This document shows, in pieces, positions 10,792 to 53,937 of a DNA stretch of 64,000 bases. The DNA comes from a virus, in IMG/VR virus record IMGVR_UViG_3300018080_000171; one strand, 5' to 3'. The notes beneath the pieces are model-generated. The model was not told the DNA's origin, did no database searches, and saw nothing but the letters and a program-made list of their open reading frames with translations. Each line of letters starts with the position of its first letter. Positions within the stretch are counted from its first letter, which is position 1. The position numbers and the translations under genes were made by a program.

Positions 10792-11084
10792 TTATACTTT
10801 TAATGACCATACAGGGATACTTAAAATATCATTATCTAATTCCCAGTGGTGATTACCACATAGCAGAACCAAATTAGAAGGGTCATTTATCTCTTTTATT
10901 TTTGTATTTGGCGAAAAAACTTTAATATCTTTGATATGACAAGTTTCAACGTGTAAAGAATATGTTATTATATACGTAACACTTGTCCACCAGACACTAA
11001 AAAACTGAAACTTATAACACTGTAAATGATAATTTTGCGGGAATAAAAAATGATAACAGAAATTGATGAAATAGAGGATATATA

Positions 11085-11441
11085 ATGTCGCTTAATTCAC
11101 AAACAGTTGTTCTTCCTCGAAGAGAAGAAAATCTTGTCGCTATTGTTAAATTTAATAGTAGAGGTGAAGAAAAAGATGGTATGAAAAATATTGTCCAGGG
11201 AATTACTAATTGGGTAAAACATACTGAAGAAGGTAAAGCCGCTTGGAGATATACAGTTGGCGATCTTAATATAGGAGATTTAGATTCCTATCTGGATCCT
11301 AGACATAATGTATTGTACCAGTATCTTAACAAACAAGGCATTTACAATCTTGATATTCATATCATAGGCACAGGCGATTATGCCAGAGACTATCACTATG
11401 ACACTATATTGGTAGATGAATTACAGTTGGATGAAGAGTAG
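11085..11441 (+). CDS. hypothetical protein (118 aa)
   Basis: ATG ORF preceded by a CACCAGACAC motif (about 10981) and a GAGGATATATA RBS. Confidence 0.5.
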   Translation: MSLNSQTVVLPRREENLVAIVKFNSRGEEKDGMKNIVQGITNWVKHTEEGKAAWRYTVGDLNIGDLDSYLDPRHNVLYQYLNKQGIYNLDIHIIGTGDYARDYHYDTILVDELQLDEE

Positions 11442-11510
11442 TCCACCAGACACTTAAAAATCGAATCTTATAACACCGAATGGTAATTTATTTTATTAAA
11501 GGGTTTAAAA

Positions 11511-11708
11511 ATGAGTAACATGAGATATTGTATGTTTCAGAAAACAGTTGGCGATATGGAAGATTGTATCGAAAGAATCGATGAAAACGATGTAAGCGAC
11601 CTCTCTGATGAAGAGCAGACAGCATATGAAGAGTTCATTGAGCATTGCGTTAATATCGCTATCGATCATGGTCACGTTATTAACAGAGAGTGTGAAGAAG
11701 TAAATTAA
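11511..11708 (+). CDS. small acidic protein (65 aa)
   Basis: ATG ORF downstream of a promoter motif. Confidence 0.45.
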   Translation: MSNMRYCMFQKTVGDMEDCIERIDENDVSDLSDEEQTAYEEFIEHCVNIAIDHGHVINRECEEVN

Positions 11709-11720
11709 AAAGGTTTAAAA

Positions 11721-11927
11721 ATGAAGATTTGGCTAACAATTAAGTTTATTGTAGCATGTATATCAGGTTGTGTTCTAACGAGAGGTTTCCGAGATGTATT
11801 AGGGATGAATCATGCCTTTTTTGGTCTTGTTCATTTCATTCTTAATTGGGCTTGGATAAGTTATTGTTGGAATTTTTATTTTCCGGAAAAAGTTAACACT
11901 GATATCGATTTCAAGGATTTAAAATGA
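11721..11927 (+). CDS. small membrane protein (68 aa)
   Basis: Hydrophobic ORF. Confidence 0.4.
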   Translation: MKIWLTIKFIVACISGCVLTRGFRDVLGMNHAFFGLVHFILNWAWISYCWNFYFPEKVNTDIDFKDLK

Positions 11928-12169
11928 GTAAATCAGAGAACGAAAAAATTGCAGCACTGCTTCGGAAAGATAGTTTAGAAGACTTATGTAGTCTACTTAC
12001 TGACCCTTGCGATGGTTGTGACGTTGACAGTAATAGATGTTCTAGTCCTATCACTTGTGGTTACACCGAACAAGATGGTTTAAGAATTGGTGCTCAGCAC
12101 GCAATGATTGAGTTAAGAAGACGAAAAGAAATTATAGATAGAGCATTACACGCGGGTAAAGATTATTAG
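11924..12169 (+). CDS. hypothetical protein (81 aa); its 3' end overlaps tRNA-Lys
   Basis: ATGA start overlaps the previous stop. Confidence 0.45.
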   Translation: MSKSENEKIAALLRKDSLEDLCSLLTDPCDGCDVDSNRCSSPITCGYTEQDGLRIGAQHAMIELRRRKEIIDRALHAGKDY

Positions 12170-12226
12170 GTAAATCACCTGCCTCTTAAGCAGGAGTCTT
12201 CTCGGTTCAAATCCGAGTACCCGCAA
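12152..12226 (+). tRNA. tRNA-Lys(CTT)
   Basis: Acceptor GCGGGTA/TACCCGC, anticodon stem CCTGC/GCAGG with loop CTCTTAA, T-arm CTCGG-TTCAAAT-CCGAG. Paralogue of tRNA-Lys(TTT). Confidence 0.65.
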
Positions 12227-12294
12227 TTAAAATAGAAAAGTGGTGAATCTTTGATGATACCAACCTAGGTAAGGGTATATAAAGGGATAATCTT

Positions 12295-12366
12295 GGCATA
12301 TAGTGTAAAAAGGCCGCACGCTGACGTTAAAGTCGGTAGTGAAGTTCGAATCTTCTATGTCCTCTA
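12295..12366 (+). tRNA. degenerate tRNA-like gene (anticodon-arm candidate CTGAC-GTTAAAG-GTCGG, giving TAA; acceptor does not pair)
   Basis: T-arm GAAG-TTCGAAT-CTTC is present. The acceptor strands are not complementary. Confidence 0.25.
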
Positions 12367-12376
12367 TTTTTATTAT

Positions 12377-13912: not shown

Positions 13913-13978
13913 TTTAACTATTCACCAGACACTTAAAAATCGAATTTTATAGGAGTGTTAATAATAATTTGTTCAAGG

Positions 13979-14566
13979 ATGGTTATGGATTTGTTTGTAA
14001 AAAATTTAGAAGAGATAAGACAGATAGCAACTAAGTTGCATTTTATACATGGTAAACGCTATGAGGTTAATGAGCTGATCAATGCATCTTATATTTTATT
14101 CAAAAGAGCTATTACTAATAATCCTACATTGTTAGAAAAACAGTTCTCTAAACTAACTACTCTCCTTTTCAGGGTTAAATCTGATATGAAATGTTACATT
14201 AGAGATGAGACTAATTTTCGGATACAAGAAAGATTGGTAGCAAAAGGTATAGAAGTACCTATGTTTCAGAATGCTTCTTTCCAAAAAGAATACGAAGAAG
14301 ATACTATTCCTTTTGAACCTTCTAACACTGAATCTGGTTTTGAGGAATTTGAAGTAAGTGATTTTCTAGATAAACTTTTTATGGAAGTTCATTTAGAAAA
14401 TGATGAGTGGGATATAATTCAAGGTTATTTCTATGATGAAAAGGAATTAAAACAAATCGGTCAAGAGATAGGCAAGGCTGAATGTACTATTTCTACTAAA
14501 AAGAAAAAGATGTTAACAAAGATGAGGCCAACTGCACTTAAGTTAAGAGAATCTATTTTAAAATAA
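13979..14566 (+). CDS. sigma-factor-like protein (region-4-like HTH at the C-terminus)
   Basis: The C-terminal ELKQIGQEIGKAECTISTKKKKMLTKMR resembles a sigma70 region 4.2 HTH. It is preceded by a CACCAGACAC motif (about 13922). The listed ORF starts at a GTG at 13955. Confidence 0.4.
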   Translation: MVMDLFVKNLEEIRQIATKLHFIHGKRYEVNELINASYILFKRAITNNPTLLEKQFSKLTTLLFRVKSDMKCYIRDETNFRIQERLVAKGIEVPMFQNASFQKEYEEDTIPFEPSNTESGFEEFEVSDFLDKLFMEVHLENDEWDIIQGYFYDEKELKQIGQEIGKAECTISTKKKKMLTKMRPTALKLRESILK

Positions 14567-14580: not shown

Positions 14581-14608
14581 TTGACTTATTCTGAAAAGAT
14601 GATATAAT
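14581..14608 (+). promoter_or_regulatory. sigma70 promoter TTGACT-N16-TATAAT
   Basis: Consensus hexamers upstream of the tRNA-Glu(CTC) cluster. Confidence 0.5.
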
Positions 14609-16146: not shown

Positions 16147-16322
16147 ATCCTTTTTATTTTTTTGTAAAAACTTTTTGAGGGACTCCGAGTCGGGGTATTA
16201 GGATATGCTCATTTTAAATTAGAGAGATACTGGCGTTTTTAAGTCTCTCTTTTTTTTTCGCGGAAAAATAAACTCACCAGACACTAAAAAATCCAATCTT
16301 ATAGGAGTAGAAAGGTAAGATT

Positions 16323-17319: not shown

Positions 17320-17560
17320 AAAACGAGAGAGATAAAATTTTAGTTCTCTCTTTTTTTTCGCGAAAAATTAAACTCACCAGACACTAAAAAATCGTATCTT
17401 ATAGAAATAGAAAGCTAAGATTATGCCATTGAAAAATAAAAGAACTATTATAAAACAATTTTTAGGAAGTTTTACGAATGGGTAGGAAAGTAGAAGTAAG
17501 GGATAATAAAGGTAATATCATTTTCGTTTACTATATCGTTCCTGGAAAGAAGAATACAGA

Positions 17561-17848: not shown

Positions 17849-17920
17849 TCACCAGACACTAGAAAATCTAATATTATAGAAGCAACGAAACAAAACTTTT
17901 ATTTTTTTAGGAATTGTAAA

Positions 17921-19657: not shown

Positions 19658-19811
19658 ACAATTCCTTGGGGGGTAGTAGGTATTGCGTAGATATTTGCTA
19701 TCCCCCTATTTTTCTCTTGTAAGTGATTTTTATTTATGTATAATTTTTAGAGTTCACCAGACACTTAAAAATTGAATCTTATAATAATGTTAGTAATGAA
19801 GGAAATAAAAA

Positions 19812-20093: not shown

Positions 20094-20273
20094 GAGTTCA
20101 CCAGACACTAAAAAATTGAATCTTATAGTAATGTAAGTTAGTTCTATAAAAAGTTAATAATAATTATCTTTAAGGGAGATATTGCTATGAAGTAAAAGTG
20201 GATGTAGTAAACACGTAGTAAATGTAGTAGAAGTATTAAACTAAAATGTATTTAAATGTAAGGAGTTCCGTTT

Positions 20274-21575: not shown

Positions 21576-21740
21576 TATCCCCCTTTTATATAGCTTAACA
21601 GCACAAACCCCTATCAGTTAATCCACTTTCTGATAGGGTTTTTTTCGCGAAAAGATATAGACTATGTCTTGTTACCAGACACCAAAAAATCCAATATTAT
21701 AGTAGTAACGAAAACAAAATACTTTTTAAGGAATTGTAGA

Positions 21741-22607
21741 ATGAAAAAACCATTAGGACTAATACTGTATAAGGGACCTTCTAATATTGATGGTAGGATG
21801 ATAGTAGTTATTGCTACCTTTAAATCGTCTAACGATAAGACTGGTAAGATGGTTCAAACTTGGATAATGTGTGCCGATGTTGACCCTATTCTAGCTATTA
21901 AAGAAGGTAGGGATTATTCTGTATGCGGCAATTGTAAACACAAACATATTGGGTCTTGTTATGTCAATATAGCATTCGGTCCTGATAATGCTTTTAAAGC
22001 CTATATTAAAGACAAATATACTCATTATAACAGTAGTCATGATTCTATGTTTAAAGGTCGAGAATTAAGATTAGGGGCTTATGGTGACCCAGCGGCAGTA
22101 CCTATCGAAGTGTGGGATAAGTTTACTGCTCTTTCCGATGGTCATACAGGATATACTCACCAGTGGAACACTCGCAAGGTACACCCACGGCTTAAAGATT
22201 ATTGTATGGCAAGTTGCGATAATGAAGCTGAATACCAAAAAGCTAAAAAGTTGGGTTGGAGGTCTTTTAGGATTAGATTAAATAAAGACCAGCCATTACT
22301 TGAAAATGAGTTTGTCTGCCCTGCTAGTAATGAAGCTGGCAGAAAAACAAGTTGTAATAAATGTAGGGCTTGTATGGGGCTTGAAGCAAAAACCCAAAAA
22401 GACCCTTGTATTATTATTCATGGTCTCCCGCATAAGCTTGAAAAGTTTAAATGGGGTATGGAGCGTATCGCATGGAAAGAAGCCTATCGTAAGGTATTTA
22501 ATTATCCACCACCAAAAAAGAAAAAAAATCGGAGGAAAAAGGTGGTATCAAAAGTAAAAAGGAAAGTATCACCAGACACCAAAAAATCGGAACTTATAGT
22601 AGTATGA
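21741..22607 (+). CDS. hypothetical Cys-rich protein with a Lys-rich C-terminus (288 aa)
   Basis: Start MKKPLG follows an AAGGAATTG RBS. The listed 21669 start lies inside the promoter motif. The C-terminus is encoded by the next motif copy. Confidence 0.5.
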   Translation: MKKPLGLILYKGPSNIDGRMIVVIATFKSSNDKTGKMVQTWIMCADVDPILAIKEGRDYSVCGNCKHKHIGSCYVNIAFGPDNAFKAYIKDKYTHYNSSHDSMFKGRELRLGAYGDPAAVPIEVWDKFTALSDGHTGYTHQWNTRKVHPRLKDYCMASCDNEAEYQKAKKLGWRSFRIRLNKDQPLLENEFVCPASNEAGRKTSCNKCRACMGLEAKTQKDPCIIIHGLPHKLEKFKWGMERIAWKEAYRKVFNYPPPKKKKNRRKKVVSKVKRKVSPDTKKSELIVV

Positions 22608-22828
22608 AAAAGAAAACAAGTATAATACTAAAAGACGAATTTGATAATCCTAATATATGGAAGCATATAGCCATATCATTAGGATAATCACCAGACACTT
22701 AAAAATCTAAGTTTATAGAGTTGAAGGGTAAACTTGTCACTTACCGCAAAATTAGAATAAGGTGGACAATCAAAAAAACAAACCTCTAACTATAGACTTA
22801 GGTTTTTAATTTAAAAGGGAATTTAATC

Positions 22829-24136
22829 ATGTCAGAAATAGTAGAACACAAAAAATTCATATGCGTAAACTTTAAAGCGTCAAACAATAATAAGGTTTGG
22901 CAATATACTATATATAAAGATGGTTCGGCTTTAACCGAGTGGGGTAGAGTAGGTCAAAACCTACAAAGCAAAATGACCACTGAATCAGCTGCGTTATCTA
23001 AAATGCGTAAAAAGACTAATCCGAATAATGCTTCTGATAAACTCTATACAGAAGTTAAAGTGGCAGAAGGTACAGAAGGCTCATCGAGTTCTGGCAGAGT
23101 AGTTAATTCTTCAAGTTTGAAGTCTATTGCTCAAAAGCAAATTGATATTAAAGACCCAACATTAAAAGAATTAGTTGACTTTCTCGTTAAAGAAAATGTC
23201 CACGATATTGTACAAGCTTCGTCAGGTTCTATTCAATATGACACTTCATCGGCTCAATTCAAGACTCCACTAGGGGTTATACTGCCCGAAATGGTATCTG
23301 ATGCTAGAGATTTACTAGATGATATGGCTGATTATGTAGTCAACCAAAAATTTGATAGTGTCGTATTGGCAAGGAAATTAAACGAATACTTACGGTTAAT
23401 ACCTCACGCGGTGGGAATGAAAAAGATTACACCAGAACTTATCTTACCGAATGCCACAGCATTACAGACAGAGAATAACTTGTTAGATGGCTTAACAGCT
23501 TCTTTCAATAATATACATTCGGGGGCTATCGCTAAATCGTGTAAAAAAGATATAGTACAACCTAGACTATTCGATGTTACGCTTGATGTGGTAAGAGATA
23601 GGGCTTTAATTAAAAGAATCGAATCTTATTACGAGAGTACTAAAAAAACGATGCACCAAAGTTTTCGTTATAAGTTGCATAAAGTATATGAGATAGAGAT
23701 AGGTTCCGTTAAGAAGAATTTTGCTAATATCGGCAAAAGTGTGGGAAATATACAGGAGTTATTTCACGGAACTAAATGCTCTAATCTTCTTGCTATTCTT
23801 AAAAAAGGGCTTATAATTCCTCCATCACGATCAGGACATGTTACTGGTCGTTTATATGGCGATGGGGTTTATGCGTCAGATATTAGTTCAAAAGCGTTAA
23901 ATTATGCGACTAATTTTTGGGGTTCGGGTGGTTCTACAAGTAGGATTTTTATGCTTTTATGTGATTTTGCTATGGGGAATATTTATTATCCTGATGGCAA
24001 ATATGGAGTTAGATATCCTGTTAAGGGTTATGACTCTACTTTTGCAAAGGCTGGACGTGGAGGAGTGTACAATAACGAAATGATAGTATACAAAACTGGA
24101 CAAGTTAATTTGAAATATTTATTAGAGTTTAAATAA
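22829..24136 (+). CDS. poly(ADP-ribose) polymerase-like ADP-ribosyltransferase (WGR domain plus PARP catalytic domain)
   Basis: WGR signature WQYTIYKDGSALTEWGRVGQ. Catalytic H-Y-E triad in ELFHGTK, GDGVYASD and YNNEMIVY. Confidence 0.75.
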   Translation: MSEIVEHKKFICVNFKASNNNKVWQYTIYKDGSALTEWGRVGQNLQSKMTTESAALSKMRKKTNPNNASDKLYTEVKVAEGTEGSSSSGRVVNSSSLKSIAQKQIDIKDPTLKELVDFLVKENVHDIVQASSGSIQYDTSSAQFKTPLGVILPEMVSDARDLLDDMADYVVNQKFDSVVLARKLNEYLRLIPHAVGMKKITPELILPNATALQTENNLLDGLTASFNNIHSGAIAKSCKKDIVQPRLFDVTLDVVRDRALIKRIESYYESTKKTMHQSFRYKLHKVYEIEIGSVKKNFANIGKSVGNIQELFHGTKCSNLLAILKKGLIIPPSRSGHVTGRLYGDGVYASDISSKALNYATNFWGSGGSTSRIFMLLCDFAMGNIYYPDGKYGVRYPVKGYDSTFAKAGRGGVYNNEMIVYKTGQVNLKYLLEFK

Positions 24137-24201: not shown

Positions 24202-25017
24202 ATGAATAATAAATCTTACAAATATCCTTTATTGAATGATAAAGAATGGCTTTTTAAAAAATACATAGAAGATGAATTAAGCACTGTTGAAATGTGCAAA
24301 ATGGCAGGTGCCAAAACTGCTAACTCTGTTAGGCAAGCTCTAATAAGACATTCTATACCAGTTAGGACTATTGGCGATGGGTTACGAGTTAATAAAGAAG
24401 ATGGCTTTATCGCCGACAAAGAAGTTATTGACGGTTGTCTATTAGGGGATGGATTTCTTTGTAAGTGGAACAAAGAGAGTGAAAAATCGTTTCCTTATTT
24501 CGCGAAAAGAAATAAATATTATGACCATATAAAATATGTTGCTGAAATACTTTTTAAGGATAAATGGCAAGAAAGAGTCAAAGAGAACAATGAAAAGTTT
24601 TTAGATAAAAAATGTGTAGTATTTTCTCTAAGAAGTTTATCTAATAAGTCTTTAAAAACATTTTACGAGAGATGGTATCCTGAATGGAATAACTATAAAA
24701 AAATTATCCCTCAAGATATAGAGATAACTCCTAATCTGCTTTTACATTGGTTTCTAGATGATGGTAGTTCTTATCTAAGAAAACGAAATAGCAAAACTAA
24801 ACAGGTGGTTATCACTTTTTGTAGCGAATGTTTCTCGAAAGATGACCAAGAAATGATTATGGATAAAGTTAATAGCCAATTCGATTTGTCTATGAGGCTG
24901 AATAAAACTAATTCTGGGGTAGGGTATAGAATAGTAGTCCCACAATCGAAAGCTGATAATTTCTATAATATAGTTGGAGATTGTCCAGTCCCCTCTATGG
25001 AGTATAAATGGAAATAG
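24202..25017 (+). CDS. LAGLIDADG-family homing endonuclease (two motifs)
   Basis: Motif 1 IDGCLLGDGFL and motif 2 LLHWFLDDGSSYL. Free-standing, directly downstream of the PARP gene. Confidence 0.5.
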   Translation: MNNKSYKYPLLNDKEWLFKKYIEDELSTVEMCKMAGAKTANSVRQALIRHSIPVRTIGDGLRVNKEDGFIADKEVIDGCLLGDGFLCKWNKESEKSFPYFAKRNKYYDHIKYVAEILFKDKWQERVKENNEKFLDKKCVVFSLRSLSNKSLKTFYERWYPEWNNYKKIIPQDIEITPNLLLHWFLDDGSSYLRKRNSKTKQVVITFCSECFSKDDQEMIMDKVNSQFDLSMRLNKTNSGVGYRIVVPQSKADNFYNIVGDCPVPSMEYKWK

Positions 25018-25085
25018 GTTCACCAGACACTAAAAAATCTAATCTTATAGTAATGTTAAGAGTTAGTAATTAAAGGAAAATAAAA

Positions 25086-25622: not shown

Positions 25623-25692
25623 ATCACCAGACACTCAAAAATTGTAACTTATAGTAATGTAAGAAGTACTAAACTAAAACAAATTTTATTTC

Positions 25693-27009: not shown

Positions 27010-27077
27010 CTCACCAGACACTTAAAAATCCTACTTTATAGAAGTGTTAATTATAACACTGTTTAGGGAATTGTATT

Positions 27078-27410: not shown

Positions 27411-27477
27411 TCACCAGACACTTAAAAATCTAATTTTATAGAAGTGTAAATTATAACACTAAATAAAGGAAAAAACG

Positions 27478-28356: not shown

Positions 28357-28419
28357 TCACCAGACACTAAAAAATCTAATCTTATAGAAGTGTTAATAAT
28401 AATTTATTGGAGTAATGAT

Positions 28420-34684: not shown

Positions 34685-34795
34685 GGGAAATACTTAGAGA
34701 GGGAGAGAGAAATCTCTCCCTTTTTTATCTTATTACCAGACAGTGAAAAATCGTATCTTATAGTATTGTAAGATATAAATTATAGGAATGTAAAA

Positions 34796-36742: not shown

Positions 36743-36782
36743 TAATGTAAGGTAATAATAACATTATTTTAGGAGCAAGAAA

Positions 36783-37214: not shown

Positions 37215-37234
37215 AAATCGAGGTTTATAGTATC

Positions 37235-37588
37235 ATGTTTAGAATAAAGAAATTTGAAATAATAGTAACAGTAATTATAGTTGGCACAATTATGCTATGC
37301 GTATACTGTTCTATACAAAAGGAGAAAAAGATGGCAGACAATATCTACATGAGAGTCAATCACATGTATACGCAAGATGGTGAACATTATGACAAGCATA
37401 TTCCTGTAGCTAATGCAGAAGAAGCCGTTATTGTTATCAATAGAGAAGCGGATAAACAAGTAAATGATATATCAGTTGGTTGGAACGCCTTTAGTTTTGA
37501 GGTTTGGGATGTAGATTCTCAAGAATGGGAATACTATTACGACGAAGAAGGTCGGGATATTGAAGAAATCATGTTAGAGACTGACTAA
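37235..37588 (+). CDS. membrane-anchored small protein (117 aa)
   Basis: N-terminal TM segment. Confidence 0.4.
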   Translation: MFRIKKFEIIVTVIIVGTIMLCVYCSIQKEKKMADNIYMRVNHMYTQDGEHYDKHIPVANAEEAVIVINREADKQVNDISVGWNAFSFEVWDVDSQEWEYYYDEEGRDIEEIMLETD

Positions 37589-37651
37589 TCACCAGACACC
37601 TAAAAATCTAATTTTATAGTAGTGTAATGATATTTGTTAAGAGGTGATAAA

Positions 37652-38314
37652 ATGGAAAATGAGAATAACTACTTTCAAACGATTAAGCCACCAGTAAAAG
37701 GTGGGGTAACTATTCGAAATAAAAAAGGTTTCTCGGGACTATACAGTGAGTATAAGAGCGAACCCACAAAACTAGGTCTAGAACTCTGGCTTATATTACA
37801 AGAGAACTGGAAAAGTTTAGGTCGGTTAGCTGGTCAAATGCTGCAGTATGGATATTGGGAAGATTACTTAAACGATGGAATATGTCTTTATTGTGGAAAG
37901 CACGATGTTGGACACTGTAATAGTGCTTCTGGCGATCTTGTGGTTAAGATGAGAGAGGGAGAGATAGCACCTGACCCATTAGCCCTAAAACACACTCATG
38001 TCCCTTCTACCCCTATGGTGTCGTCTGAGAATGAGGAACAAGATGGGTTACATCTACAATGGATATATGTAATTGACCCAGAAAATTCTACGCTGGAAGT
38101 TTTGAAGTCGGTCCGTAAAAGAGGAACATGTATTTCAATGATAAGAAATAGAAAATATCGACAAGAGTCATACCAGTATTTCCCTGTCGGTATATTCTCT
38201 TTACATGATAATATGCCTGATTGGGACGAAGTAGAGCAAAGAGGTCTTGATTTCGCTAAGTTCTATCATGAGAAGTATCAGGCTCACCAGACACTCAAAA
38301 ATTTAATCTTATAG
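37652..38314 (+). CDS. hypothetical protein (220 aa)
   Basis: A GAGGTGATAA RBS precedes the ATG. Confidence 0.45.
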   Translation: MENENNYFQTIKPPVKGGVTIRNKKGFSGLYSEYKSEPTKLGLELWLILQENWKSLGRLAGQMLQYGYWEDYLNDGICLYCGKHDVGHCNSASGDLVVKMREGEIAPDPLALKHTHVPSTPMVSSENEEQDGLHLQWIYVIDPENSTLEVLKSVRKRGTCISMIRNRKYRQESYQYFPVGIFSLHDNMPDWDEVEQRGLDFAKFYHEKYQAHQTLKNLIL

Positions 38315-38348
38315 TATTGTAAGGAAACAATATTCTAGGAGTAATAAA

Positions 38349-38981: not shown

Positions 38982-39053
38982 TCACCAGACACTTAAAAAT
39001 TGAGGTTTATAGTAATATAAGAAAATAATAATATTTTAGTAAAGGGTAGAACA

Positions 39054-39882: not shown

Positions 39883-40008
39883 AGTTATTGTTTTCGTTAA
39901 AGTTTTAAGCCCTCAGAAATGGGGGTTTTTTTCGTGTATCACCAGACACCTAAAAATTCAATCTTATAGAAGTGTTAATAATACTAACTTTTTTGGGAGC
40001 AAAAAAAA

Positions 40009-40296: not shown

Positions 40297-40402
40297 TTGT
40301 CTTGAAGCCCCTTAATTGGGGGCTTTTTTATCTTATCACCAGACACTTAAAAATTCAATCTTATAGTATTGTAAGATATAACACTGAATAGGGAGTATTA
40401 AA

Positions 40403-41280: not shown

Positions 41281-41351
41281 TCACCAGACACCTAAAAATC
41301 CGGTCTTATAGTAATGTAAGGTAATGACACTTTAATTTTGGGAGTTGAAAA

Positions 41352-41636: not shown

Positions 41637-41876
41637 TGGGTAAATATTATCTTGAAGATGGTGACGAAGTAACAGCAGACTTTGCAGAGGTAGAATATGT
41701 TAAATCTACTGGTGTTATGAGGTTCATGGGTTGGGGAGAATGTAACTATTTTTTTGCGGGGAAAAAGGTTAAATACGATAAAAAAGATAGAGCGTATATA
41801 GAATTAGAATAATCACCAGACACCTAAAAATCTAATCTTATAGTATTGTAAGATATAACACCTAATAGGATATATC

Positions 41877-42071: not shown

Positions 42072-42466
42072 AAGAATAACTACACCAGAAGAAGTAGCAA
42101 AAGAGATGATGGAAAACTATCAAGAATTTGCTATTGAAAAAATATGTTATTTTTTAAACGATAATCCAGAGATTTTTAAGTCTTGGACTGATTGGCTAAA
42201 TAAAGAAGGAGAGTTTTCAGATTAGTGATAAAGACAAAGTAATGGAGATTATCGAGAAACAACAAAGTATCCGAATTGGTGACCTAGAGTATAAATCAGG
42301 TATCTTTATTGTAGACCTTTTTAATCTCATCGAGGAGTTGATAGAAGAAGGCAAGATAGAGTGTAAACGTAATGGGATATTTAAGTACTATTCTATCACC
42401 TAATCACCAGACACCTAAAAATCTAATCTTATAGTATTGTAAACTATAACTTATTCGGAGTCGATT

Positions 42467-43006
42467 ATGAAACCTATACTATTCAACAAATATAAAATCA
42501 ACGGAAGACAAATTGCTGAAGCTATGTGGGGAACTGGAGGAACTCACGCGGTAAAGACTAACAGAAAAGGAGCCTATTATTATTCATGTTCGGCAAACGG
42601 GGGGTATGTAGTTAGTTTGAATGCGTTAACAGAAGAGGAAAAATCTCTACTTAATCAATACACCGAAACAATGAAAATACAAGCATTGGTGCAAAACAGA
42701 ACTGATGGTGACTATATTATAGCAGTATCTTTATCTGGAATACAGAGATATGTCGGCAAAAATAGACGATACAGATATACTCCACACCTCGGACAAGTCA
42801 AGTGGGTCGATATCGAATTTTATGCTTTTGAAGAAGATTGTGACTGGGCGATTCTTGAGAAGTTAACGGATGTAAAAACTCTTGATAGAGAGTCAACTTG
42901 CACTCCAGAAAAACGTCAAGAGATTGTCGATAATACGTTTGAAAGATGGGCGACACCGAAACGTAAATCACCAGACACTCAAAAATCTAATCTTATAGCA
43001 TTGTAA
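42467..43006 (+). CDS. hypothetical protein (179 aa); C-terminus encoded by the promoter motif
   Basis: Ends ...SPDTQKSNLIAL inside a motif copy. Confidence 0.45.
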   Translation: MKPILFNKYKINGRQIAEAMWGTGGTHAVKTNRKGAYYYSCSANGGYVVSLNALTEEEKSLLNQYTETMKIQALVQNRTDGDYIIAVSLSGIQRYVGKNRRYRYTPHLGQVKWVDIEFYAFEEDCDWAILEKLTDVKTLDRESTCTPEKRQEIVDNTFERWATPKRKSPDTQKSNLIAL

Positions 43007-43038
43007 AGAAAATGACATTTTTTTAAATAAAGATAATT

Positions 43039-43434: not shown

Positions 43435-43574
43435 AATCTTTCTTTTGTTGCTTTTTTACATATAAGGGTAGTCTTAATTGGCTACCCTTTTTATCGTGTT
43501 ACCAGACACCTAAAAATTTAATCTTATAGTATTGTAAAGGAATGATAATTATATTTTATTTTAGGAATTGTAAA

Positions 43575-44615: not shown

Positions 44616-44732
44616 TCTTTAATCCCCCTTGAAATATAGGGGGCTTTTTTATCTTGTTACCAGACAACCAAAAATCGTATCTTATATGTATGTAAGGAAA
44701 TGTTAATATTACTTTTTTAGAAGGGGATACTT

Positions 44733-44927: not shown

Positions 44928-45276
44928 GAAATTAGCCCCCTGAAACACGGGGGCTTTTCTTTTCTCACCAGACACCTAAAAATTTAGTCTTATAGAAGTG
45001 TTAATAATAACACTGAATAGGGAGTAATAAGATGAAGATGGAAGAAATAAACATAAACGTACTGATGCCTGGCGATACGATATTCCACGATAACAAAGAA
45101 ATGACGGTTTGCAAGAAAGATCTAAAACGAGGCTTTTGTGGGATAACCGTTTTCGGAGACAGCTACAGAATGGGAACGATACCCGTTTTGCGAGTATTGG
45201 AATAGATACTTAATCACCAGACACTTAAAAATTTAGTCTTATAGTAATGTAAGATAAAACTTTTTTGGAGCAAAAA

Positions 45277-45540: not shown

Positions 45541-45828
45541 CCACCAGACACTCAAAAATCTAATCTTATAGTAATGTAAGGAAACGAAACTGAGGGCGTA
45601 TAACGCAGTCCTTATAACCAAAATGAGGCGTTATTGATACGAGATAGATATTATCTAAAAATTGCCCTATTCGATTCTCGTTAAAGAATAGGGCATACGT
45701 TATTAAAGGCGGGCAGAAATGCCACCCTAAATATAATATTGTTAATACTAGATAGGTATTGTATTTAAATACGCCCTATTCTATTCTAGTTAAAGAAGAC
45801 CGGGCATGGGTTTTTGAGGAAAAATACT

Positions 45829-46038: not shown

Positions 46039-46105
46039 CTCACCAGACACTCAAAAATCGTATCTTATAGTATTGTAAACAATAACACTGAATAGGGATA
46101 ATGAT

Positions 46106-46309: not shown

Positions 46310-46542
46310 ATATTCTTTTCTTGCTTGAATGGATAACGCCTAATTGTGTTGTAGGTATCTTTCTGCCTTTTTTCCAGTATCGGACCATAATCACGAGCAA
46401 TTAGGAACAACGTTACTATTCATAACGTTTTTTTTCTTCATAATAGGAGTGGCGACATTATGTGTCGTCACTTACTTTTATCACCAGACACCTAAATATC
46501 TAATCTTATAGTATTGTAAGATAAAACTTTTTGGGAGAAAAA

Positions 46543-47025: not shown

Positions 47026-47091
47026 TCACCAGACACCTGAAAATACAGTCTTATAGAAGTGTTAATAATAACACTGAATAGGAGATTAACA

Positions 47092-47373: not shown

Positions 47374-47619
47374 CCACCAGACACTAAAAAATTGAATCTT
47401 ATAGAAGTAATGAGAAAAACCGAAATATCGAAACCTTAAATACTAGCGAAAGAGACGGTGCTTTATGGGCTAAAGTAAGATGGAGATCAGACTCAATAAA
47501 AATAATACGTTTGGCAGTATCGTATAACTGCCCCCCTTTTTTATCTTGTTACCAGACAACCAAAAATCCAATCTTATAGTATTGTAAGGTAATGATAATA
47601 CTATTTTAAGGAGTTGAAA

Positions 47620-47952: not shown

Positions 47953-47960
47953 TATCCATA

Positions 47961-47990
47961 GCCCTCTCGGATAAAACCGAGGGGGTTTCT
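47961..47990 (+). terminator. terminator hairpin family CCCTCTCGGATAAAACCGAGGGGG followed by a T-run (copy 1 of at least 7)
   Basis: 9-bp GC-rich stem, a loop, then TTTCTCTT, immediately followed by the promoter motif. Copies near 48911, 49578, 50083, 50365, 50913 and 53172. Confidence 0.6.
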
Positions 47991-48280
47991 CTTATTACCA
48001 GACACCTAAAAATTTAGTCTTATAGTATTGTAAGGAAAACAAAAACTTTATTATAAGGAGCGAAAAATGAGATTGCTAATTGAAAATGAAAAGAATAAAG
48101 AGTTTTATATCAAGATATTCAAGACTTACACTGACGCAAGGCATTGGATAATTAACCACCTCGATTTGTCTTTAAAATGGAGCTGCACCGACATTGGAAC
48201 AATTGACCACCAGACACCTAAAAATCCAGTCTTATAGTATTGTAAGGAAACGATAATATTACTTTTTTGGGAGCAAGAAA

Positions 48281-48502: not shown

Positions 48503-48675
48503 ACCGAAAAGAACAAACTTTGGATTAAGGGGCAGAAATGTCCCTTATTCCTTTTTCTCGGAAAACCCACAAAAAAGATCGATTAAATGCTCTTCAAGAT
48601 TAACCACCAGACACTCAAAAATCCAATCTTATAGTAATGTAAGGAAATGATAACTTTATTATAAGGAGTAATGAC

Positions 48676-48903: not shown

Positions 48904-48989
48904 CCACAATAGCCTCTCGGATAAAACCGAGGGGCTATATCTCGTTACTAGACAATTAAAAATCTAATCTTATAGTCAGGAGCCCACAA

Positions 48990-49343
48990 ATGCTATCATA
49001 TGTAAACAAAAAGGGTAAGATTATACCTATAACTGTAAAACGTCACGCTTATGCTCAATTTTTTGAAAGATACAAATTAGTTCTACCTAAAAAAGACCTA
49101 CAAAATGCACAAGTCCCAGCCGAGTTCGAAAGACTCTTTTCTATATCCAAAAAGGTGATAAACCTAAACAGAAAAGAGAAAACTAGACTTAAAAGATATG
49201 GAGACGATACAATGTTCTTTCGTACCAATTTCTTTACCTTTGTTGTCCAGAATAGATGCGTTGTAACTGTAGAGATAAGTAATCAGGATAAACGGTATCT
49301 GAATAAGAGACATCACCAGACACCTAAAAATCCAGTCTTATAG
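48990..49343 (+). CDS. small basic protein (117 aa)
   Basis: C-terminus ...HHQTPKNPVL is encoded by the motif. Confidence 0.4.
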   Translation: MLSYVNKKGKIIPITVKRHAYAQFFERYKLVLPKKDLQNAQVPAEFERLFSISKKVINLNRKEKTRLKRYGDDTMFFRTNFFTFVVQNRCVVTVEISNQDKRYLNKRHHQTPKNPVL

Positions 49344-49386
49344 TATTGTAAGGAAATGATAATTTTAATTTAAAAGGAGTAAAAAA

Positions 49387-49569: not shown

Positions 49570-49680
49570 ATTAACTAGCCTCTCGGATAAAACCGAGGGG
49601 CTATAACCATTTACCAGACACCTAAAAATCCAATCTTATAGTATTGTAAGGTAATGATAACTTTAATTTGGGAGCAAAAA

Positions 49681-50070: not shown

Positions 50071-50508
50071 CCACAATAACCCTCTCGGATAAAACCGAGG
50101 GGGTTTCTCTTTTTACCAGACACCTAAAAATCTAATCTTATAGTATTGTAAGGTAATGATAATACTATTTTAAAAGGAGCAAAAAAATGACTGATTTAAA
50201 AGAAGCGTTGATAAATGGACAAGATATGTCGCCAGCCGAAGCAGATGAAGTTATTGAGGAGATGAAAGATCGACTTTACGAGGGAGAAGACCCAGAAGAG
50301 TTACTGTATGAACAAGGTCTTGAACCTGATTATATTTTCGACCTTCTCGATTGATAACTAAGCCCTTCGGATAAAACCGAGGGGCTTTCTCTTTTTACCA
50401 GACACCTAAAAATCCAGTCTTATAGTATTGTAAGGAAATAATAACTTTAATTTTGGGAGCAAAAAAATAGAAAAGACAAAAAACACAATCAGTTGGAACC
50501 TCAAACCA

Positions 50509-50904
50509 TTGAATAAAAAAGCCGAAGCAATCTTTAAAAAGATTATCGACGGAGTAACTCCTGATAAGGAAAAATATATCGGTGAAAAAGGTAAGGCAGT
50601 AATGCAAGTTATTGCAGAGCAAATATATCATGAAAACGACTACGGCAAAGTCTATGCAGTAGGTCACTACTTCATACAAAATGGAGATAGAATGTCCGAC
50701 CCCGAAATGACTTTCCTTGTAAACGATTCAGATGGTAAAGTTTATCCACTTTCTTTTGAGATGCACGGAGTTTTGGCGATATATCAAGAATCAGCAATAT
50801 TTACAGATGGTAAGCTATCAAGCAAAATCCCAAAATGGAATAATGAACATAAGAATTTTGCTAATGGTTGGATGGAAAACATAAACAATCAGCAAAGTCT
50901 TTAA
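50509..50904 (+). CDS. small protein (131 aa) with a TTG start; the expected ATG position carries ATA
   Basis: The paralogous RBS context GGGAGCAAAAAA is followed by ATAG rather than ATGN. ATA at 50467 is in frame with the TTG start at 50509. Confidence 0.35.
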   Translation: MNKKAEAIFKKIIDGVTPDKEKYIGEKGKAVMQVIAEQIYHENDYGKVYAVGHYFIQNGDRMSDPEMTFLVNDSDGKVYPLSFEMHGVLAIYQESAIFTDGKLSSKIPKWNNEHKNFANGWMENINNQQSL

Positions 50905-51018
50905 TATTCACAACCCTCTCGGATAAAACCGAGGGGGTTTCTCTTTTTACCAGACAACCAAAAATCCAGTCTTATAGTATTGTAAGGAAAACAAAAACTT
51001 TATTATAAGGAGTAAAAA

Positions 51019-51402: not shown

Positions 51403-51491
51403 GAGGGTAAGATATATCTTGTTACCAGACAACCAAAAATCTAATCTTATAGTATTGTAAGGTAATGATAACTTTAATTTGGGAGCAAAAA

Positions 51492-52394
51492 ATGTCAAGA
51501 AAAAATACAAAATTCGCAAAGCCACTAATGCTAATAGATATATTCGGAACCCCCGATGATGTATTAAATTATGCGGAATTTTACAGAGGAAGATTAGAAC
51601 AAGCCAAAAAAGACCTAAAATCTTTTCCTCCTGAGGAAAGAGAAAACATATTAAAATCTCAATGGCTCGGAACCGATGCCGAGAAAGAGTGGTTCGATGT
51701 CCACAATCCCTGTTATAAAGTCACAAGTTCTGTAATTTCAAAGATAAAAGATATTGAATTGCCTGAACTACTAGATACGATGTTAATGCCATTTAATAGC
51801 TTTCTTATCGTTTTACCAAAAGACGAACATTCGCTGATTGTTGCAGATAAAGGTAGACATTATATTGATGGAGTAATGGTTAGCCTACAAGAAGATAATG
51901 ATAAAACATATATCTGTTTTATCTTTTATATGAGATGGGCAAAAGGCTCGTATATAACTAGCGATGTTTTCAATATGGAACATCCTTTATCTCAACAAGT
52001 CCAAACGAAAATGGGAAATGAGGACTTTAAAGAGGAAAATACTATCTTTATGGAACTGATAAAAACAGCTTTAAAAATATCTTTTATAGCTTCAAATGAG
52101 ATACTTATCGAAAAAGAGAACAAAATACTTGTTTCTAAAAAGAGAAACACAAAAGAAAATGTAAAAGTTATAACAGACTTTATTTGTTCTGATTATAGGC
52201 GATTCCTTTTACCTAATTGGCAAGATATACAATCAGTTTTGTCGGGAATAGGTCATGAACTACATTACCAATTCACAAGAAAAGGACATTGGAGACATTT
52301 TAGAGATAGTTTGGGAAACGTAGTTAATAGGGTTTGGGTACGACAATCTCTTATACGCCCTGACTTGCCAAGGAAAGCCGAGCTTATGAGATAA
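51492..52394 (+). CDS. hypothetical protein (300 aa)
   Basis: GGGAGCAAAAAATG start. The listed 51465 start is inside the motif. Confidence 0.45.
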   Translation: MSRKNTKFAKPLMLIDIFGTPDDVLNYAEFYRGRLEQAKKDLKSFPPEERENILKSQWLGTDAEKEWFDVHNPCYKVTSSVISKIKDIELPELLDTMLMPFNSFLIVLPKDEHSLIVADKGRHYIDGVMVSLQEDNDKTYICFIFYMRWAKGSYITSDVFNMEHPLSQQVQTKMGNEDFKEENTIFMELIKTALKISFIASNEILIEKENKILVSKKRNTKENVKVITDFICSDYRRFLLPNWQDIQSVLSGIGHELHYQFTRKGHWRHFRDSLGNVVNRVWVRQSLIRPDLPRKAELMR

Positions 52395-52483
52395 CATACC
52401 CCTTTCATCTTGTTACCAGACACCTGAAAATCTAATCTTATAGTATTGTAAGGTAATGATAACTTTTTAAAAGGAGCAAAAAA

Positions 52484-52786
52484 ATGAGTTTAGGCGATAA
52501 TACAAAATGCAATTTATCAGCAGGACTTGCAGAAATTGACCTTGCAATACTGACTAAACAGATGGAAATTCACTTCTATGGTCTAATGGATAAGATGAGA
52601 AAAAAGGTAACAGATGTCCAGTATGGCAATATGGCTATCGAGAATAGAAGAGAAGCCTTAGCCTCAATGTCCTCAACTGGCTCAAAAGATATATTGAATA
52701 TGGCTCGAAATATCGCCGAGGTTACGGAGCTTTTACATACTCTTTATGAAACATTCGACAGGGAAATAGAGATTATAAGAGAGTAA
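52484..52786 (+). CDS. small protein (100 aa)
   Basis: ATG ORF. Confidence 0.4.
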   Translation: MSLGDNTKCNLSAGLAEIDLAILTKQMEIHFYGLMDKMRKKVTDVQYGNMAIENRREALASMSSTGSKDILNMARNIAEVTELLHTLYETFDREIEIIRE

Positions 52787-52904
52787 TATCCGTAATAGCC
52801 CCTTGTCAATTAAAGGCGAGGGGCTTTATCTTTTTACCAGACAACCAAAAATTTAGTCTTATAGTATTGTAAGGTAATGATAATACTATTTTAAGGAGTT
52901 GAAA

Positions 52905-53162
52905 ATGACTGCAACCGAAATTATCGCAAAAGCAAACGAATCCGAAGAATGTTGTTTCTCTGATTGTCTCGCTATCGAACTAAAGGGTAAAAAAGACCCA
53001 GCAAAGCTAGTATTCGGAATCTATCAATCTGCGGCGGGACATTATATAGGTCGATATTGTCCAGAATGCGGACCGTTCGACAGACAGAGCGGTTACTTCG
53101 AAACAAGAGAAAAGGCTGAAGAATATCTTGAACAGATGGCTGAATGTTTTGTCGAGATTTAA
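52905..53162 (+). CDS. small Cys-containing protein (85 aa)
   Basis: AAGGAGTTGAAAATG start. The listed ORF begins at a TTG two codons upstream. Confidence 0.4.
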   Translation: MTATEIIAKANESEECCFSDCLAIELKGKKDPAKLVFGIYQSAAGHYIGRYCPECGPFDRQSGYFETREKAEEYLEQMAECFVEI

Positions 53163-53276
53163 TATCAACAACCCTCTCGGATAAAACCGAGGGGGTTTCT
53201 CTTGTTACCAGACAACCAAAAATTTAGTCTTATAGTATTGTAAGGCAATGATAACTTTAATTTGGGAGTCAAAAAA

Positions 53277-53684
53277 ATGTCAACAAAATCAAAAATCAAT
53301 AACGGTACGATAACGCTAATCAATAACGACAAAGGAACTCATTTAACCCTAACTGTCAAAACCGTCAAAAGAGGTCAACTTAAAGGCAAAAGGATTATTG
53401 CTAAGCTAGTCGGTCGAGATAATACAAGAGATTATGAGGGTTTTGGGTTTGTAAATAATGACGATACGATTAGTCTTTGGACCAGGCATCGGAACGCTAA
53501 AAACGCCCAGATTGCTCTTATCGTCCGATCGTTGTTTATCCAAGGAAACGCCAGCCCGTTCGCAAAATGCGTCTCTATGGAAGTCTCAAAGCGTTGTATA
53601 AGATGCAACCGCAAACTAACAACCCCCCAAAGCCTAGCCGATGGAATCGGTCCAGAATGTATTAAAAAAGGCATGGCATTTTAA
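53277..53684 (+). CDS. small basic protein (135 aa)
   Basis: GGGAGTCAAAAAAATG start. Confidence 0.4.
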   Translation: MSTKSKINNGTITLINNDKGTHLTLTVKTVKRGQLKGKRIIAKLVGRDNTRDYEGFGFVNNDDTISLWTRHRNAKNAQIALIVRSLFIQGNASPFAKCVSMEVSKRCIRCNRKLTTPQSLADGIGPECIKKGMAF

Positions 53685-53721
53685 CCCAAACGGGGGGGCA
53701 AAAAACCCCCCAACTTTTTAC

Positions 53722-53750
53722 TTGACAAGCCTATAAAAATATGATATAAT
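53722..53750 (+). promoter_or_regulatory. sigma70 promoter TTGACA-N17-TATAAT
   Basis: Perfect hexamers upstream of two motif copies and gene 53938. Confidence 0.5.
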
Positions 53751-53937
53751 AAAGGTTGAGTAAAAAGATACGAAGGGTCTTATTACCAGACAACTAAAAA
53801 TTTAATCTTATAGTAGTAGTAGGGAGGGAATGATGGACACTAAGAAGACAAGATAGGTCTTGTTACCAGACACTAAAAAATGCAATCTTATAGTATTGTA
53901 AAGAAATAATAATTTTAACTTTTTTGGGAGCAAAAAA

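Follow-up and report, generated by a model that had tools for sequence, protein, structure and literature searches.

Several described phage systems come close to the element studied here, a 41-base motif repeated through a 64,000-nucleotide (nt) stretch of virus DNA (IMG/VR record IMGVR_UViG_3300018080_000171; this whole stretch is called the window below). T4 middle promoters combine a MotA box (TGCTT) with a sigma-70 -10 element by sigma appropriation, and PhoB/OmpR-type promoters are likewise box-dependent. The PeSL and PmSL elements (promoter-early and promoter-middle stem-loop) of T4-type phages are composite units of stem-loop terminator, promoter, Shine-Dalgarno sequence (SD) and start codon that recur between small ORFans, mainly in hyperplastic regions; copies may be halved or degraded, and open reading frames (ORFs) turn over between relatives (Arbiol et al. 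2010, PMC2839356; Comeau et al. 2014, PMC4122927). Phage sigma factors also have promoters of their own: gp47 of 7-11 reads GTAAtg-16-aCTA and gp36 of phiEco32 reads tAATGTAtA, with 6-8 such promoters per phage before middle or late operons (PMC8948821).

We found that the motif resembles PeSL/PmSL elements, MotA-box promoters and phage-sigma promoters in its working, and that it is a member of none of them by sequence. The closest known analogues are the T4-type PeSL cassettes and the MotA-box middle promoters. The motif is most likely a promoter specific to the phage and dependent on a factor made by the phage, an arrangement known in kind but here in a new, dense form. The composite layout of PeSL units between small ORFans is found here as well, as are their concentration in a hyperplastic region, the half and degraded copies, and the ORF turnover between relatives. 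In contrast to the sigma-70-like PeSL promoter (TTGACA/TTTACW-N17-TATAAT-like), the motif has CCAGAC-N17-TATAG, and the genome has separate canonical promoters. Unlike in PeSL elements, a hairpin accompanies only ~1/4 of the copies, most of the copies abutting a stop codon instead; the conserved stretch is longer (41 nt and the leader) and its copies are more densely spaced (63 in 43 kb); and this phage is not T4-like by any protein or nucleotide region compared with GenBank phages.

As in MotA-dependent and PhoB/OmpR-type promoters, a box takes the place of the -35 element and keeps a fixed distance to a -10-like element (CCAGA at positions 0-4, TTATA at 22-26; the first C of CCAGACA is position 0 throughout). 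A further likeness to MotA is that the candidate binder is a small phage protein with a canonical early promoter, and that the box is clade-wide and the -10 part varies. However, the box is unrelated to TGCTT, T4 is not known to have an inverted array of boxes at the gene of its factor, and the candidate, the product of gene 1320-2009, has no Pfam match to MotA domains (an AsiA homologue was not searched for). The likeness to phage-sigma systems lies in a divergent sigma-70-family protein and in a conserved, phage-specific consensus beside host-type promoters. The differences are that 63 copies stand before single small genes, rather than 6-8 before operons, and that there is a second candidate factor here, the link between sigma and promoter being putative. 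Integron cassettes depend on an integrase, lack promoters and end in an imperfect palindromic attC. They differ in that the cassettes here carry their own promoter-like element, that the hairpins here are simple GC stems with T tails, and that no integrase was found in the scanned and precomputed annotations.

A bipartite motif in 63 co-oriented copies

The upstream half of the motif, CCAGACAYYWAAAAAT (up to two mismatches), matched 68 times in the 64-kb window, compared to 0.66 expected, and shuffles never gave more than 3 matches. The + strand from 10,990 to 53,866 holds sixty-three of these matches; the remaining five lie at 1,028-1,230 in the orientation +,-,+,-,+. The downstream half, TCTTATAGTAWTGTAAGG (up to three mismatches), matched 39 times (0.22 expected), each time 20 nt past an upstream half, and had zero occurrences alone in the window. 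Together the halves form a motif of 41 bases, T(C/T)ACCAGACAC-yw-AAAAAT-N5-CTTATAG-tAnTGTaA, with 63 co-oriented copies spanning ~10,990-53,903. Copies are absent between 1.3 and 10.9 kb and from the packed gene block past 53.9 kb. The original prediction of at least 60 copies of a ~40-bp motif was borne out, since there are 63 full copies and ~0.7 were expected, and we conclude that the repeat is a genuine, highly non-random regulatory element. It had also placed copies at 11-14 kb and at 1.0-1.2 kb. Full copies do start at 10987, 11443 and 13922, but the matches at 1.0-1.2 kb are mostly lone upstream halves.

The 63 copies align without gaps as aT(c/t)ACCAGACAC(t/c)wAAAAATc.AaTCTTATAGtA.TGTaAgg, with contiguous conservation from -3 to +37. 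A-1, C0, C5 and T22-A26 (TTATA) are invariant (63/63), position 32 is a purine in 63/63, and C1 (61/63), T31 (59/63) and G27 (58/63) are nearly so. In a TAATGTAAGG variant found in ~14 copies (e.g. 36742-36747, 41311-41316 and 48634-48639), positions 30-35 read ATG-TAA, a start and then a stop codon, which is probably incidental. The copies, in order along the window, are:

10987-11027, +, motif copy, TATAAC variant, 5' of ORF 11085; pattern match
11443-11483, +, motif copy, CTTATAACACCGAAT variant, 5' of ORF 11511; variant recurs in L006, L009, L007 and the megaphage (relatives described below)
13922-13962, +, motif copy directly 5' of the sigma-like gene; 56/56 nt identical in L006, proteins 51% identical
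16274-16314, +, motif copy, short leader (ATG at position 46), terminator 5'
17374-17414, +, motif copy, terminator 5'
17849-17889, +, motif copy; pattern match
19754-19794, +, motif copy; pattern match
20098-20138, +, motif copy, long leader; pattern match
21672-21712, +, motif copy; pattern match
22569-22609, +, motif copy; preceding ORF ends inside (+36); ATG at 32 opens a 27-codon ORF
22688-22728, +, motif copy 5' of PARP-like gene; pattern match
25020-25060, +, motif copy; pattern match
25624-25664, +, motif copy; pattern match
27011-27051, +, motif copy; pattern match
27411-27451, +, motif copy; pattern match
28357-28397, +, motif copy; pattern match
29065-29105, +, degenerate motif copy (AACTAGACAA, TATAAT); ATG at 32 opens a 46-codon ORF
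29304-29344, +, motif copy; pattern match
30146-30186, +, motif copy; pattern match
30972-31012, +, motif copy; pattern match
31790-31830, +, motif copy; pattern match
32455-32495, +, motif copy; pattern match
33178-33218, +, motif copy, long leader; pattern match
33806-33846, +, motif copy; pattern match
34733-34773, +, motif copy (TACC), terminator 34696-34725 on 5' side
35057-35097, +, motif copy, long leader; pattern match
36072-36112, +, motif copy; pattern match
36712-36752, +, motif copy; its TAG is the stop of ORF 36143-36742
37200-37240, +, motif copy; preceding ORF ends at +12; ATG at 32 opens a 117-codon ORF
37589-37629, +, motif copy; pattern match
38284-38324, +, motif copy; its TAG is the stop of the preceding ORF
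38982-39022, +, motif copy; pattern match
39939-39979, +, motif copy, terminator 39907-39928 on 5' side
40336-40376, +, motif copy, hairpin and T-tract on 5' side
41281-41321, +, motif copy; pattern match
41813-41853, +, motif copy; pattern match
42404-42444, +, motif copy; pattern match
42968-43008, +, motif copy; ORF 42467-43006 ends inside (...SPDTQKSNLIAL)
43499-43539, +, motif copy (TACC), hairpin 5'
44657-44697, +, motif copy (TACC, AACC variant), terminator 44625-44643 on 5' side
44965-45005, +, motif copy, terminator 44934-44955 on 5' side
45214-45254, +, motif copy; pattern match
45541-45581, +, motif copy, long leader; pattern match
46040-46080, +, motif copy; pattern match
46481-46521, +, motif copy, hairpin 46447-46473 on 5' side
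47026-47066, +, motif copy; pattern match
47374-47414, +, motif copy; pattern match
47549-47589, +, motif copy (TACC, AACC), terminator 47513-47532 on 5' side
47995-48035, +, motif copy (TACC), terminator 47960-47987 on 5' side
48207-48247, +, motif copy; its TAG is the stop of the preceding ORF
48604-48644, +, motif copy; pattern match
48945-48985, +, degenerate motif copy (TACTAGACAA); SD AGGAG at positions 30-34, ATG at 42
49313-49353, +, motif copy; its TAG is the stop of ORF 48990-49343
49611-49651, +, motif copy (TACC), hairpin 5'
50113-50153, +, motif copy (TACC), terminator 50078-50105 on 5' side
50395-50435, +, motif copy (TACC), terminator 50360-50387 on 5' side
50947-50987, +, motif copy (TACC, AACC), terminator 50912-50939 on 5' side
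51422-51462, +, motif copy (TACC, AACC); pattern match
52413-52453, +, motif copy (TACC); pattern match
52834-52874, +, motif copy (TACC, AACC), terminator 52797-52825 on 5' side
53205-53245, +, motif copy (TACC, AACC), terminator 53170-53197 on 5' side
53783-53823, +, motif copy, first of a tandem pair past canonical promoter 53722-53750
53863-53903, +, last motif copy, 5' of packed gene block 53938-63900

Each copy is part of a unit between genes

All long ORFs of the window are on the + strand. All 63 copies point the same way as the genes, and no copy sits in the interior of an ORF. For 50 of the 71 called genes in 16-54 kb a copy starts at most 110 nt upstream of the start codon, and a few further genes there have one 150-250 nt upstream; the earlier statement that nearly every gene in this region is preceded by the motif was overstated. 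The motif typically sits 58-73 nt upstream of an SD and ATG, which in most copies lie 31-46 nt after the G of TATAG. The leader is conserved within sub-families of copies, down to GGGAGCAAAAAATG.

On the 5' side, a stop codon ends 3-7 nt before CCAGACA in 24 of 63 copies, in 17 of them as exactly TAA-TCA-CCAGACA. The preceding ORF enters the motif in only 8 of 63 copies (five stop at the TAG of TATAG, giving ...HQTPKNLIL, two end at +36 and one at +12). It had been suggested that many upstream ORFs read into the motif and that the shared HQTPKNLIL C-termini might be a tag; instead these ends are a by-product of tight packing in a minority of copies. Most other copies lie behind a gap of 20-70 nt, usually with a GC-rich hairpin and then a T-rich tail that enters the motif (for example AACCCTCTCGGATAAAACCGAGGGGGTTTCTCTTTT-TACCAGACA). 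A GC hairpin ends at most 14 nt upstream in 15 of 63 copies, and most of the others abut a stop codon.

The two sequence classes described earlier do exist. T as opposed to C at -2 tracks the upstream hairpin: a hairpin and T-tract lie just upstream of 11 of 18 copies with T, compared to 4 of 44 with C. The ACAACC variant is limited to seven copies, all at 44.6-53.8 kb and mostly with near-identical leaders. The idea that these are temporal classes found no support; they look like local copy families tied to an upstream terminator, and nothing indicates timing.

Five copies have leaders of 150-250 nt with no convincing ORF (20139-20273, 33219-33426, 35098-35269, 45582-45828 and 50436-50601). 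These leaders could be small RNAs or encode very small proteins, and there was no Rfam match there; the Rfam scan gave only tRNAs above threshold. We also considered a conserved RNA hairpin in the motif or leader and rejected it, as the mutual information between columns reflects only the copy sub-families and no helix pairs consistently. There are local palindromes, e.g. AGTGTTA-ATAA-TAACACT in one leader class, with one compensatory variant (29307), and they are not general.

Based on its position, orientation, geometry and conservation in relatives, the description of the motif as a promoter-like element is supported, and the motif is very probably a promoter cassette. It would be the core of a cassette before most genes of the variable early/middle region of a very large phage, each unit consisting of the previous stop codon or a GC hairpin and T-tract terminator, a bipartite promoter, a conserved leader, and an SD and ATG.

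The motif is conserved in other huge phages

One gene of the window led to relatives:

13985-14566, +, sigma-70-family protein, 193 amino acids (aa), domains 2 and 4; candidate specificity factor

A profile of this protein found a 38% identical homologue on a 460,978-bp IMG/VR contig (IMGVR_UViG_3300037247_001786; the megaphage below). Twenty-six genes of the window match this contig in the same order, at 368.5-424 kb, indicating that the window is a piece of a relative of the megaphage. The 65.8 kb of the megaphage that we examined has 64 + strand matches to TTGCCAGAGTG, or 60 without the array copies described below. All pattern matches on the contig fall between 333 and 426 kb of the 461 kb, the + strand matches at about 340-426 kb as far as sampled. 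The megaphage consensus is TTGCCAGAGTG-nn-AAAAA-N5-yTTATAG-.atTgTaa. CCAGA, T22-T23-A24 and T31-purine32 are conserved in both phages.

In ~14 of the 60 megaphage copies the A5 tract is replaced by a T-rich tract. The element that had been called an A-rich spacer can therefore be a T-tract, and the interchange of A5 and T5 suggests that the tract is read as shape and not as bases, and is not a -10 element. We rejected AAAAAT as the true -10 on these grounds and because T15 is C in lineages L007 and L035.

Other lineages carry their own versions. The motif of L006 is identical to that of the window over 56 nt, though the proteins are 51% identical. L007 and L035 have CACCAGAGTGAAAAAAAC...TTA(A/C)AAGG, and L003 and L034 have TTCCAGAG...TATAG. 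In three distant huge phages (548, 351 and 298 kb; L047-L049), TTCCAGACAA-N4-TTTT boxes precede genes and are followed by canonical or TG-extended -10 elements after 17-25 nt.

The identical window sequence is present in several metagenome assemblies, and the other assemblies found were all 99.9-100% identical. No near-identical GenBank phage was found for 10-30 kb of the window, and tblastn with the sigma-like or a 697-aa protein gave nothing useful. A 288-aa protein of the window is a widely scattered accessory gene and uninformative on taxonomy. A scan with the exact window-motif pattern gave no IMG/VR matches and only single chance matches in the metagenome collection; a scan with the TTCCAGACAANNNNTTTT pattern gave mostly single chance matches among the matches listed.

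An array of half-sites precedes a candidate box-binding gene

The five upstream halves at 1.0-1.2 kb alternate in orientation and are followed by a canonical promoter (1246-1274) and then by gene 1320-2009:

1026-1043, +, lone upstream half-site CACCAGACACTTAAAAAA, array member 1
1081-1098, -, lone upstream half-site, inverted, array member 2
1120-1159, +, array member 3, with degenerate downstream half TCTTATATTGTTGTAAGA
1175-1192, -, lone upstream half-site, inverted, array member 4
1213-1230, +, lone upstream half-site, array member 5, 16 nt before the -35 of promoter 1246-1274
1320-2009, +, conserved 229-aa protein, predicted winged-helix-like; candidate box-binding factor

The megaphage has the same alternating array in its own box version, a canonical promoter, and a 66% identical homologue of the 1320-2009 product. 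We found 77 homologues of this protein, including ones of 34-37% identity in the three distant huge phages. In those phages (L047-L049), inverted TTCCAGACA sites flank the canonical promoter of the homologous gene (in L047, TTGACA-17-TATGAT). Lone upstream halves occur as inverted sites around the canonical promoter of this gene in five huge phages. The protein had no Pfam or PHROG match, and the fold matches of its model were generic winged-helix domains.

The first unit of the megaphage array (368258-368300, L046/L037) has an inverted TACCAGACAA, the window's version of the box, next to the megaphage version, GCCAGAGTG. Another short motif, (TAG)CACCGAAT(A)A, is found at 859-872, 1048-1061 and 1160-1170, inside the copy at 11443-11483, and five times in L048; it recurs between inverted half-sites and just past the -10-like element of one promoter sub-class. 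The first 1,000 nt of the window are ~1 kb of AT-rich non-coding DNA with repeat families (AAAAATAATAAATATTATATCTATTAT at 804 and 964; pieces of leader such as ATAACACTGAATAG at 870-930). This stretch could be an origin or a control region, and the homologous megaphage stretch (367.9-368.25 kb) is also non-coding. Two genes past 1320-2009 lies 3001-4002, which encodes a DnaB/KaiC-like P-loop ATPase, 78% identical to that of the megaphage, with a canonical promoter at 2937; it may be part of a replication module.

An invariant CCAGA at ~34% protein identity, inverted sites at the gene's own promoter, and the A/T tract fit an autoregulating winged-helix binder. The 1320-2009 product is thus a second candidate box reader, with better comparative support than the sigma-like ORF. 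We predict that it reads the CCAGA box, a prediction that we hold tentatively and would put somewhat short of probable.

A proposed mechanism and start site

From these comparisons we infer promoter activity, a start site and an assignment of proteins to the two halves. The host multisubunit RNA polymerase would transcribe from this promoter, which is however not of the housekeeping type and probably needs a phage-encoded factor. The upstream half, T-N-N-CCAGA-S-N-N plus the A5/T5 tract, would serve as the recognition site of a protein, at about -35 to -17. The 1320-2009 product may bind CACCAGACAC-N3-AAAAAT, with its recognition helix on CCAGA and its wing reaching into the A/T tract's narrow minor groove, and may control its own canonical promoter by way of the inverted half-site array; region 4 of the sigma-like protein is an alternative candidate for a phage-encoded box binder. 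CTTATAG would be a non-canonical -10-like element, read by the phage sigma-like protein or by host sigma A, and transcription would start at the invariant purine 5 nt past TATAG. A factor-dependent promoter cassette of this kind, with the 1320-2009 product as the most likely box reader, is the reading that we favor, with a confidence a little short of even odds.

The start site is suggested by the ATGs. An ATG lies exactly at position 32 in 14 copies (12 in the megaphage and 2 in the window) and opens ORFs of 42-228 codons. Taken with the conserved T31-purine32, these ATGs point to initiation at 32 and to a sub-class of leaderless transcripts. Counted from a +1 at 32, the box falls at -35 to -25, the A/T tract at -22 to -17 and CTTATAG at -11 to -5. 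In an alternative register TATAGT would be -12 to -7 and the start near 35, which would cut off the position-32 ATGs and the SD of copy 48948.

Carried to the whole clade, the proposal is that phages of ~300-550 kb share one CCAGA and A/T-tract box read by a new, autoregulated winged-helix-like family, that the orphan sigma of one sub-lineage re-specified the -10 to CTTATAG, that the cassettes swap ORFans across a 40-90 kb hyperplastic region, and that some mRNAs are leaderless and begin at the position-32 ATG. Taken as a whole, this proposal is less likely than not.

Several points weigh against the proposed box reader and its promoter. The array could be an origin with iterons and not an operator, because a DnaB-like ATPase gene (3001) and an AT-rich non-coding stretch adjoin gene 1320-2009. 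In some copies the spacer contains an SD-like AGG, or an SD falls at positions 30-34; the genes behind them would need read-through transcripts or leaderless translation. The sigma gene lies immediately behind a motif copy in 4 of the 6 lineages with flanking sequence (of the other two, one has the ATG of the gene within the copy and one has the copy in front of a small ORF just upstream). Finally, the CCAGA(C/G)-N17-TATAG spacing is strictly kept in every lineage, as if one sigma read both halves.

The sigma-like protein as an alternative reader

The ORF at 13985-14566 had been proposed as a candidate regulator. It is a genuine sigma-70-family protein, and a candidate it remains. It passes Pfam Sigma70_r4 (27.8 bits; cutoff 24.1). 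A profile of its family matched FliA/sigma-28 in the PDB at 2e-5, with a weak alignment in region 2, and its model has two helical domains and a disordered linker, with sigma factors as all of the top 50 Foldseek matches. Homologues are rare (8 among 5.8 billion proteins, plus one IMG/VR relative), and a scan of genome contigs for further relatives found none. The gene and the motif co-occur in 7 lineages. A motif copy stands right before the sigma gene in the window, L006, L009, L007, L035 and the megaphage, and overlaps its start codon in L034.

It is possible, then, that phage sigma and host core together read both halves, region 4 on CCAGAC and region 2 on TTATAG, and that the promoters form a middle class with positive autoregulation. 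The membership of the protein in the sigma family, the motif copy at its gene across lineages and the fixed spacing all favor this, and there is a precedent in gp47 of 7-11, which reads the bipartite promoter GTAAtg-16-aCTA (PMC8948821). However, lone inverted upstream halves around a canonical promoter, as seen in five phages, are unexpected for region 4 of a holoenzyme. The predicted recognition helix varies among close relatives and CCAGA is invariant. Co-variation between this helix and box positions 5-7 looked promising in five lineages and was rejected when L035 contradicted it. In addition, the family is tiny compared to the more widespread box, and the distant huge phages pair the same box with canonical or extended -10s. 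We consider it rather unlikely that sigma reads both halves.

The position of the sigma gene is consistent with an autoregulated, motif-reading sigma and also with a regulon member that directs a later class. CTTATAG occurs where the sigma was found, and the distant phages in which no sigma homologue was retrieved (its absence is not shown) pair the box with canonical -10s. This pattern, though unproven, may be meaningful.

A separate class of canonical promoters

The window also has host-type promoters. Against an expectation of 1.6 per strand, the + strand has ten TTGACA-16/18-TATAAT sites at 11/12 or better and the - strand has none. Six canonical sites have a TG extension, and eight are intergenic and outside motif copies:

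1246-1274, +, canonical TTGAAA-17-TGnTATAAT promoter of gene 1320-2009; same layout in the megaphage and L047-L049
2937-2965, +, canonical promoter, TTGACA-17-TATATT with TG
4148-4175, +, canonical promoter 5' of the tRNA region
4879-4907, +, canonical promoter 5' of the tRNA array
9914-9941, +, canonical promoter
14581-14608, +, canonical promoter just past the sigma gene; conserved in L006 and L035
15384-15413, +, canonical promoter
53722-53750, +, perfect 12/12 match to the canonical promoter TTGACA-17-TGnTATAAT; forms a tandem with two motif copies

By comparison, the best -35 registers of the motif score 4/6 (CAGACA) and 3-4/6 (TCACCA/TTACCA) against TTGACA, and C0 (63/63) and C1 (61/63) are non-consensus. 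TATAGN, 16-17 nt away from the upstream element, has A as its second base and a variable T as its sixth; with the start at position 32, hexamer position 2 would be C or T. The motif is best read as a promoter class distinct from the canonical one, and differs exactly where a housekeeping sigma reads. In the tandem at 53.7-53.9 kb, a canonical promoter is combined with two motif copies in front of a 10-kb gene block, as would be expected of two differently regulated classes.

These data bear on another explanation, namely that the copies are strong early promoters for unmodified host sigma A, CAGACA-16-TATAGT, equivalent to T4-type PeSL or SPO1 host-takeover promoters, and that their additional conservation reflects recent spread and gene conversion. 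Genes of the SPO1 early region are small ORFans with strong SDs. The genes served here are of this type, as in T4 early regions (PMC4122927); the consensus has 9/12 of TTGACA/TATAAT with a 16-nt spacer; and megaphage bases -3 to 2 read TTGCCA. But this TTGCCA is 20 nt from TATAGT, and the same genome has separate, near-perfect TG-extended canonical promoters. The non-consensus C0 and C1 are kept and the final T of the hexamer is present in only 67% and 48% of copies (42/63 in the window and 29/60 in the megaphage), the opposite of selection by sigma A. Promoter and leader are 56/56 identical where the flanking proteins are 51% identical, which argues for selection on positions that sigma A does not read. 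The variable final T, the conserved T31-purine32 and the ATGs at 32 also make the originally proposed sigma70 register, CAGACA/TATAGT, doubtful. We regard unmodified sigma A as a decidedly unlikely reader.

It is also conceivable that the motif is not primarily a promoter and serves in recombination or cassette capture, in RNA processing, or as a site for a replication or packaging protein, with expression by read-through. The SD or start codon inside several copies requires upstream transcripts, the half-site array lies in an AT-rich non-coding region beside a helicase-like gene, and the repeats bound variable ORFs. In contrast, strict co-direction with the genes and a fixed distance to SD and ATG fit promoters, and copies stand right behind terminator hairpins, so that without them the genes downstream would not be transcribed. 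The scanned ORFs and the precomputed Pfam families include no recombinase, and no covarying RNA helix was found. A non-promoter role is very unlikely. The least likely reader of all is a phage RNA polymerase (T7-like single-subunit or jumbo multisubunit, encoded outside the window) starting at the G of TATAG: CTTATAG resembles -5 to +1 of T7/SP6-type promoters and most of the genome of this huge phage lies outside the window, but no polymerase gene was found among the ORFs of the window scanned (Pfam/PHROGs) or in precomputed Pfam annotation over most of it, the ~40-nt bipartite region with its A/T tract is unlike the contiguous 20-23-nt promoters of such enzymes, and in relatives the box adjoins canonical bacterial -35/-10 elements.

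ORFs turn over while the motif persists

BLASTP of 114 ORFs against one another gave a single weak pair. The ORFs of the cassettes are not paralogous, and gene duplication was thereby ruled out as the source of the repeats. Their flanks, made of terminator, promoter and leader, are near-identical over up to ~110 nt. The window shares 14 of 27 genes with the megaphage in 16-34 kb and 4 of 44 in 34-54 kb, one of the four out of order, in a comparison that has two small gaps in the compared sequence and relies on tblastn, which is insensitive for short ORFs. The density of motif copies is similar in the two phages. The lack of paralogy, and ORF turnover relative to the megaphage while the motif persists, support the earlier idea of autonomous cassettes that favor shuffling. 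The 40-110 nt of identical regulatory flanks could act as recombination points that turn over ORFans.

Other genes of the window

Between 5184 and 15804 the window has 32 tRNA genes, for nearly all amino acids, with three motif copies and small ORFs among them. The 461-kb megaphage (29 tRNAs in L036) and three other huge phages keep this array in the same order; in all three of the distant huge phages, tRNA arrays follow.

The gene at 22829-24136 encodes a 435-aa protein with matches to PARP catalytic and regulatory domains and a weak match to WGR, 66% identical to its megaphage counterpart. An ADP-ribosyltransferase in an early region recalls T4 Alt and Mod, which modify RNA polymerase. Right behind it, without a motif copy of its own, is a free-standing LAGLIDADG homing-endonuclease gene (24202-25017). 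It has no counterpart in the syntenic megaphage region and is thus probably a recent insertion. Accessory ORFs unusual for a phage carry a FeoA domain (55869-56291), a Flg_new_2 (InlB B-repeat-like) domain with a weak PEP-CTERM match (58354-58884), and a cold-shock domain (9354-9554).

Implications

Almost no transcription programme has been described for huge phages that are available only from metagenomes. Our findings offer a sequence-defined regulon of ~60 promoters in each genome, together with two candidate factors and predictions of the start site and of an operator array. If the proposal is true, then the motif marks a temporal class of ~60 dark-matter genes per phage, and promoter and factor would be a compact orthogonal pair. 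The PeSL idea, in which cassettes drive the shuffling of ORFans, would then extend from T4-like phages to an unrelated clade of megaphages.

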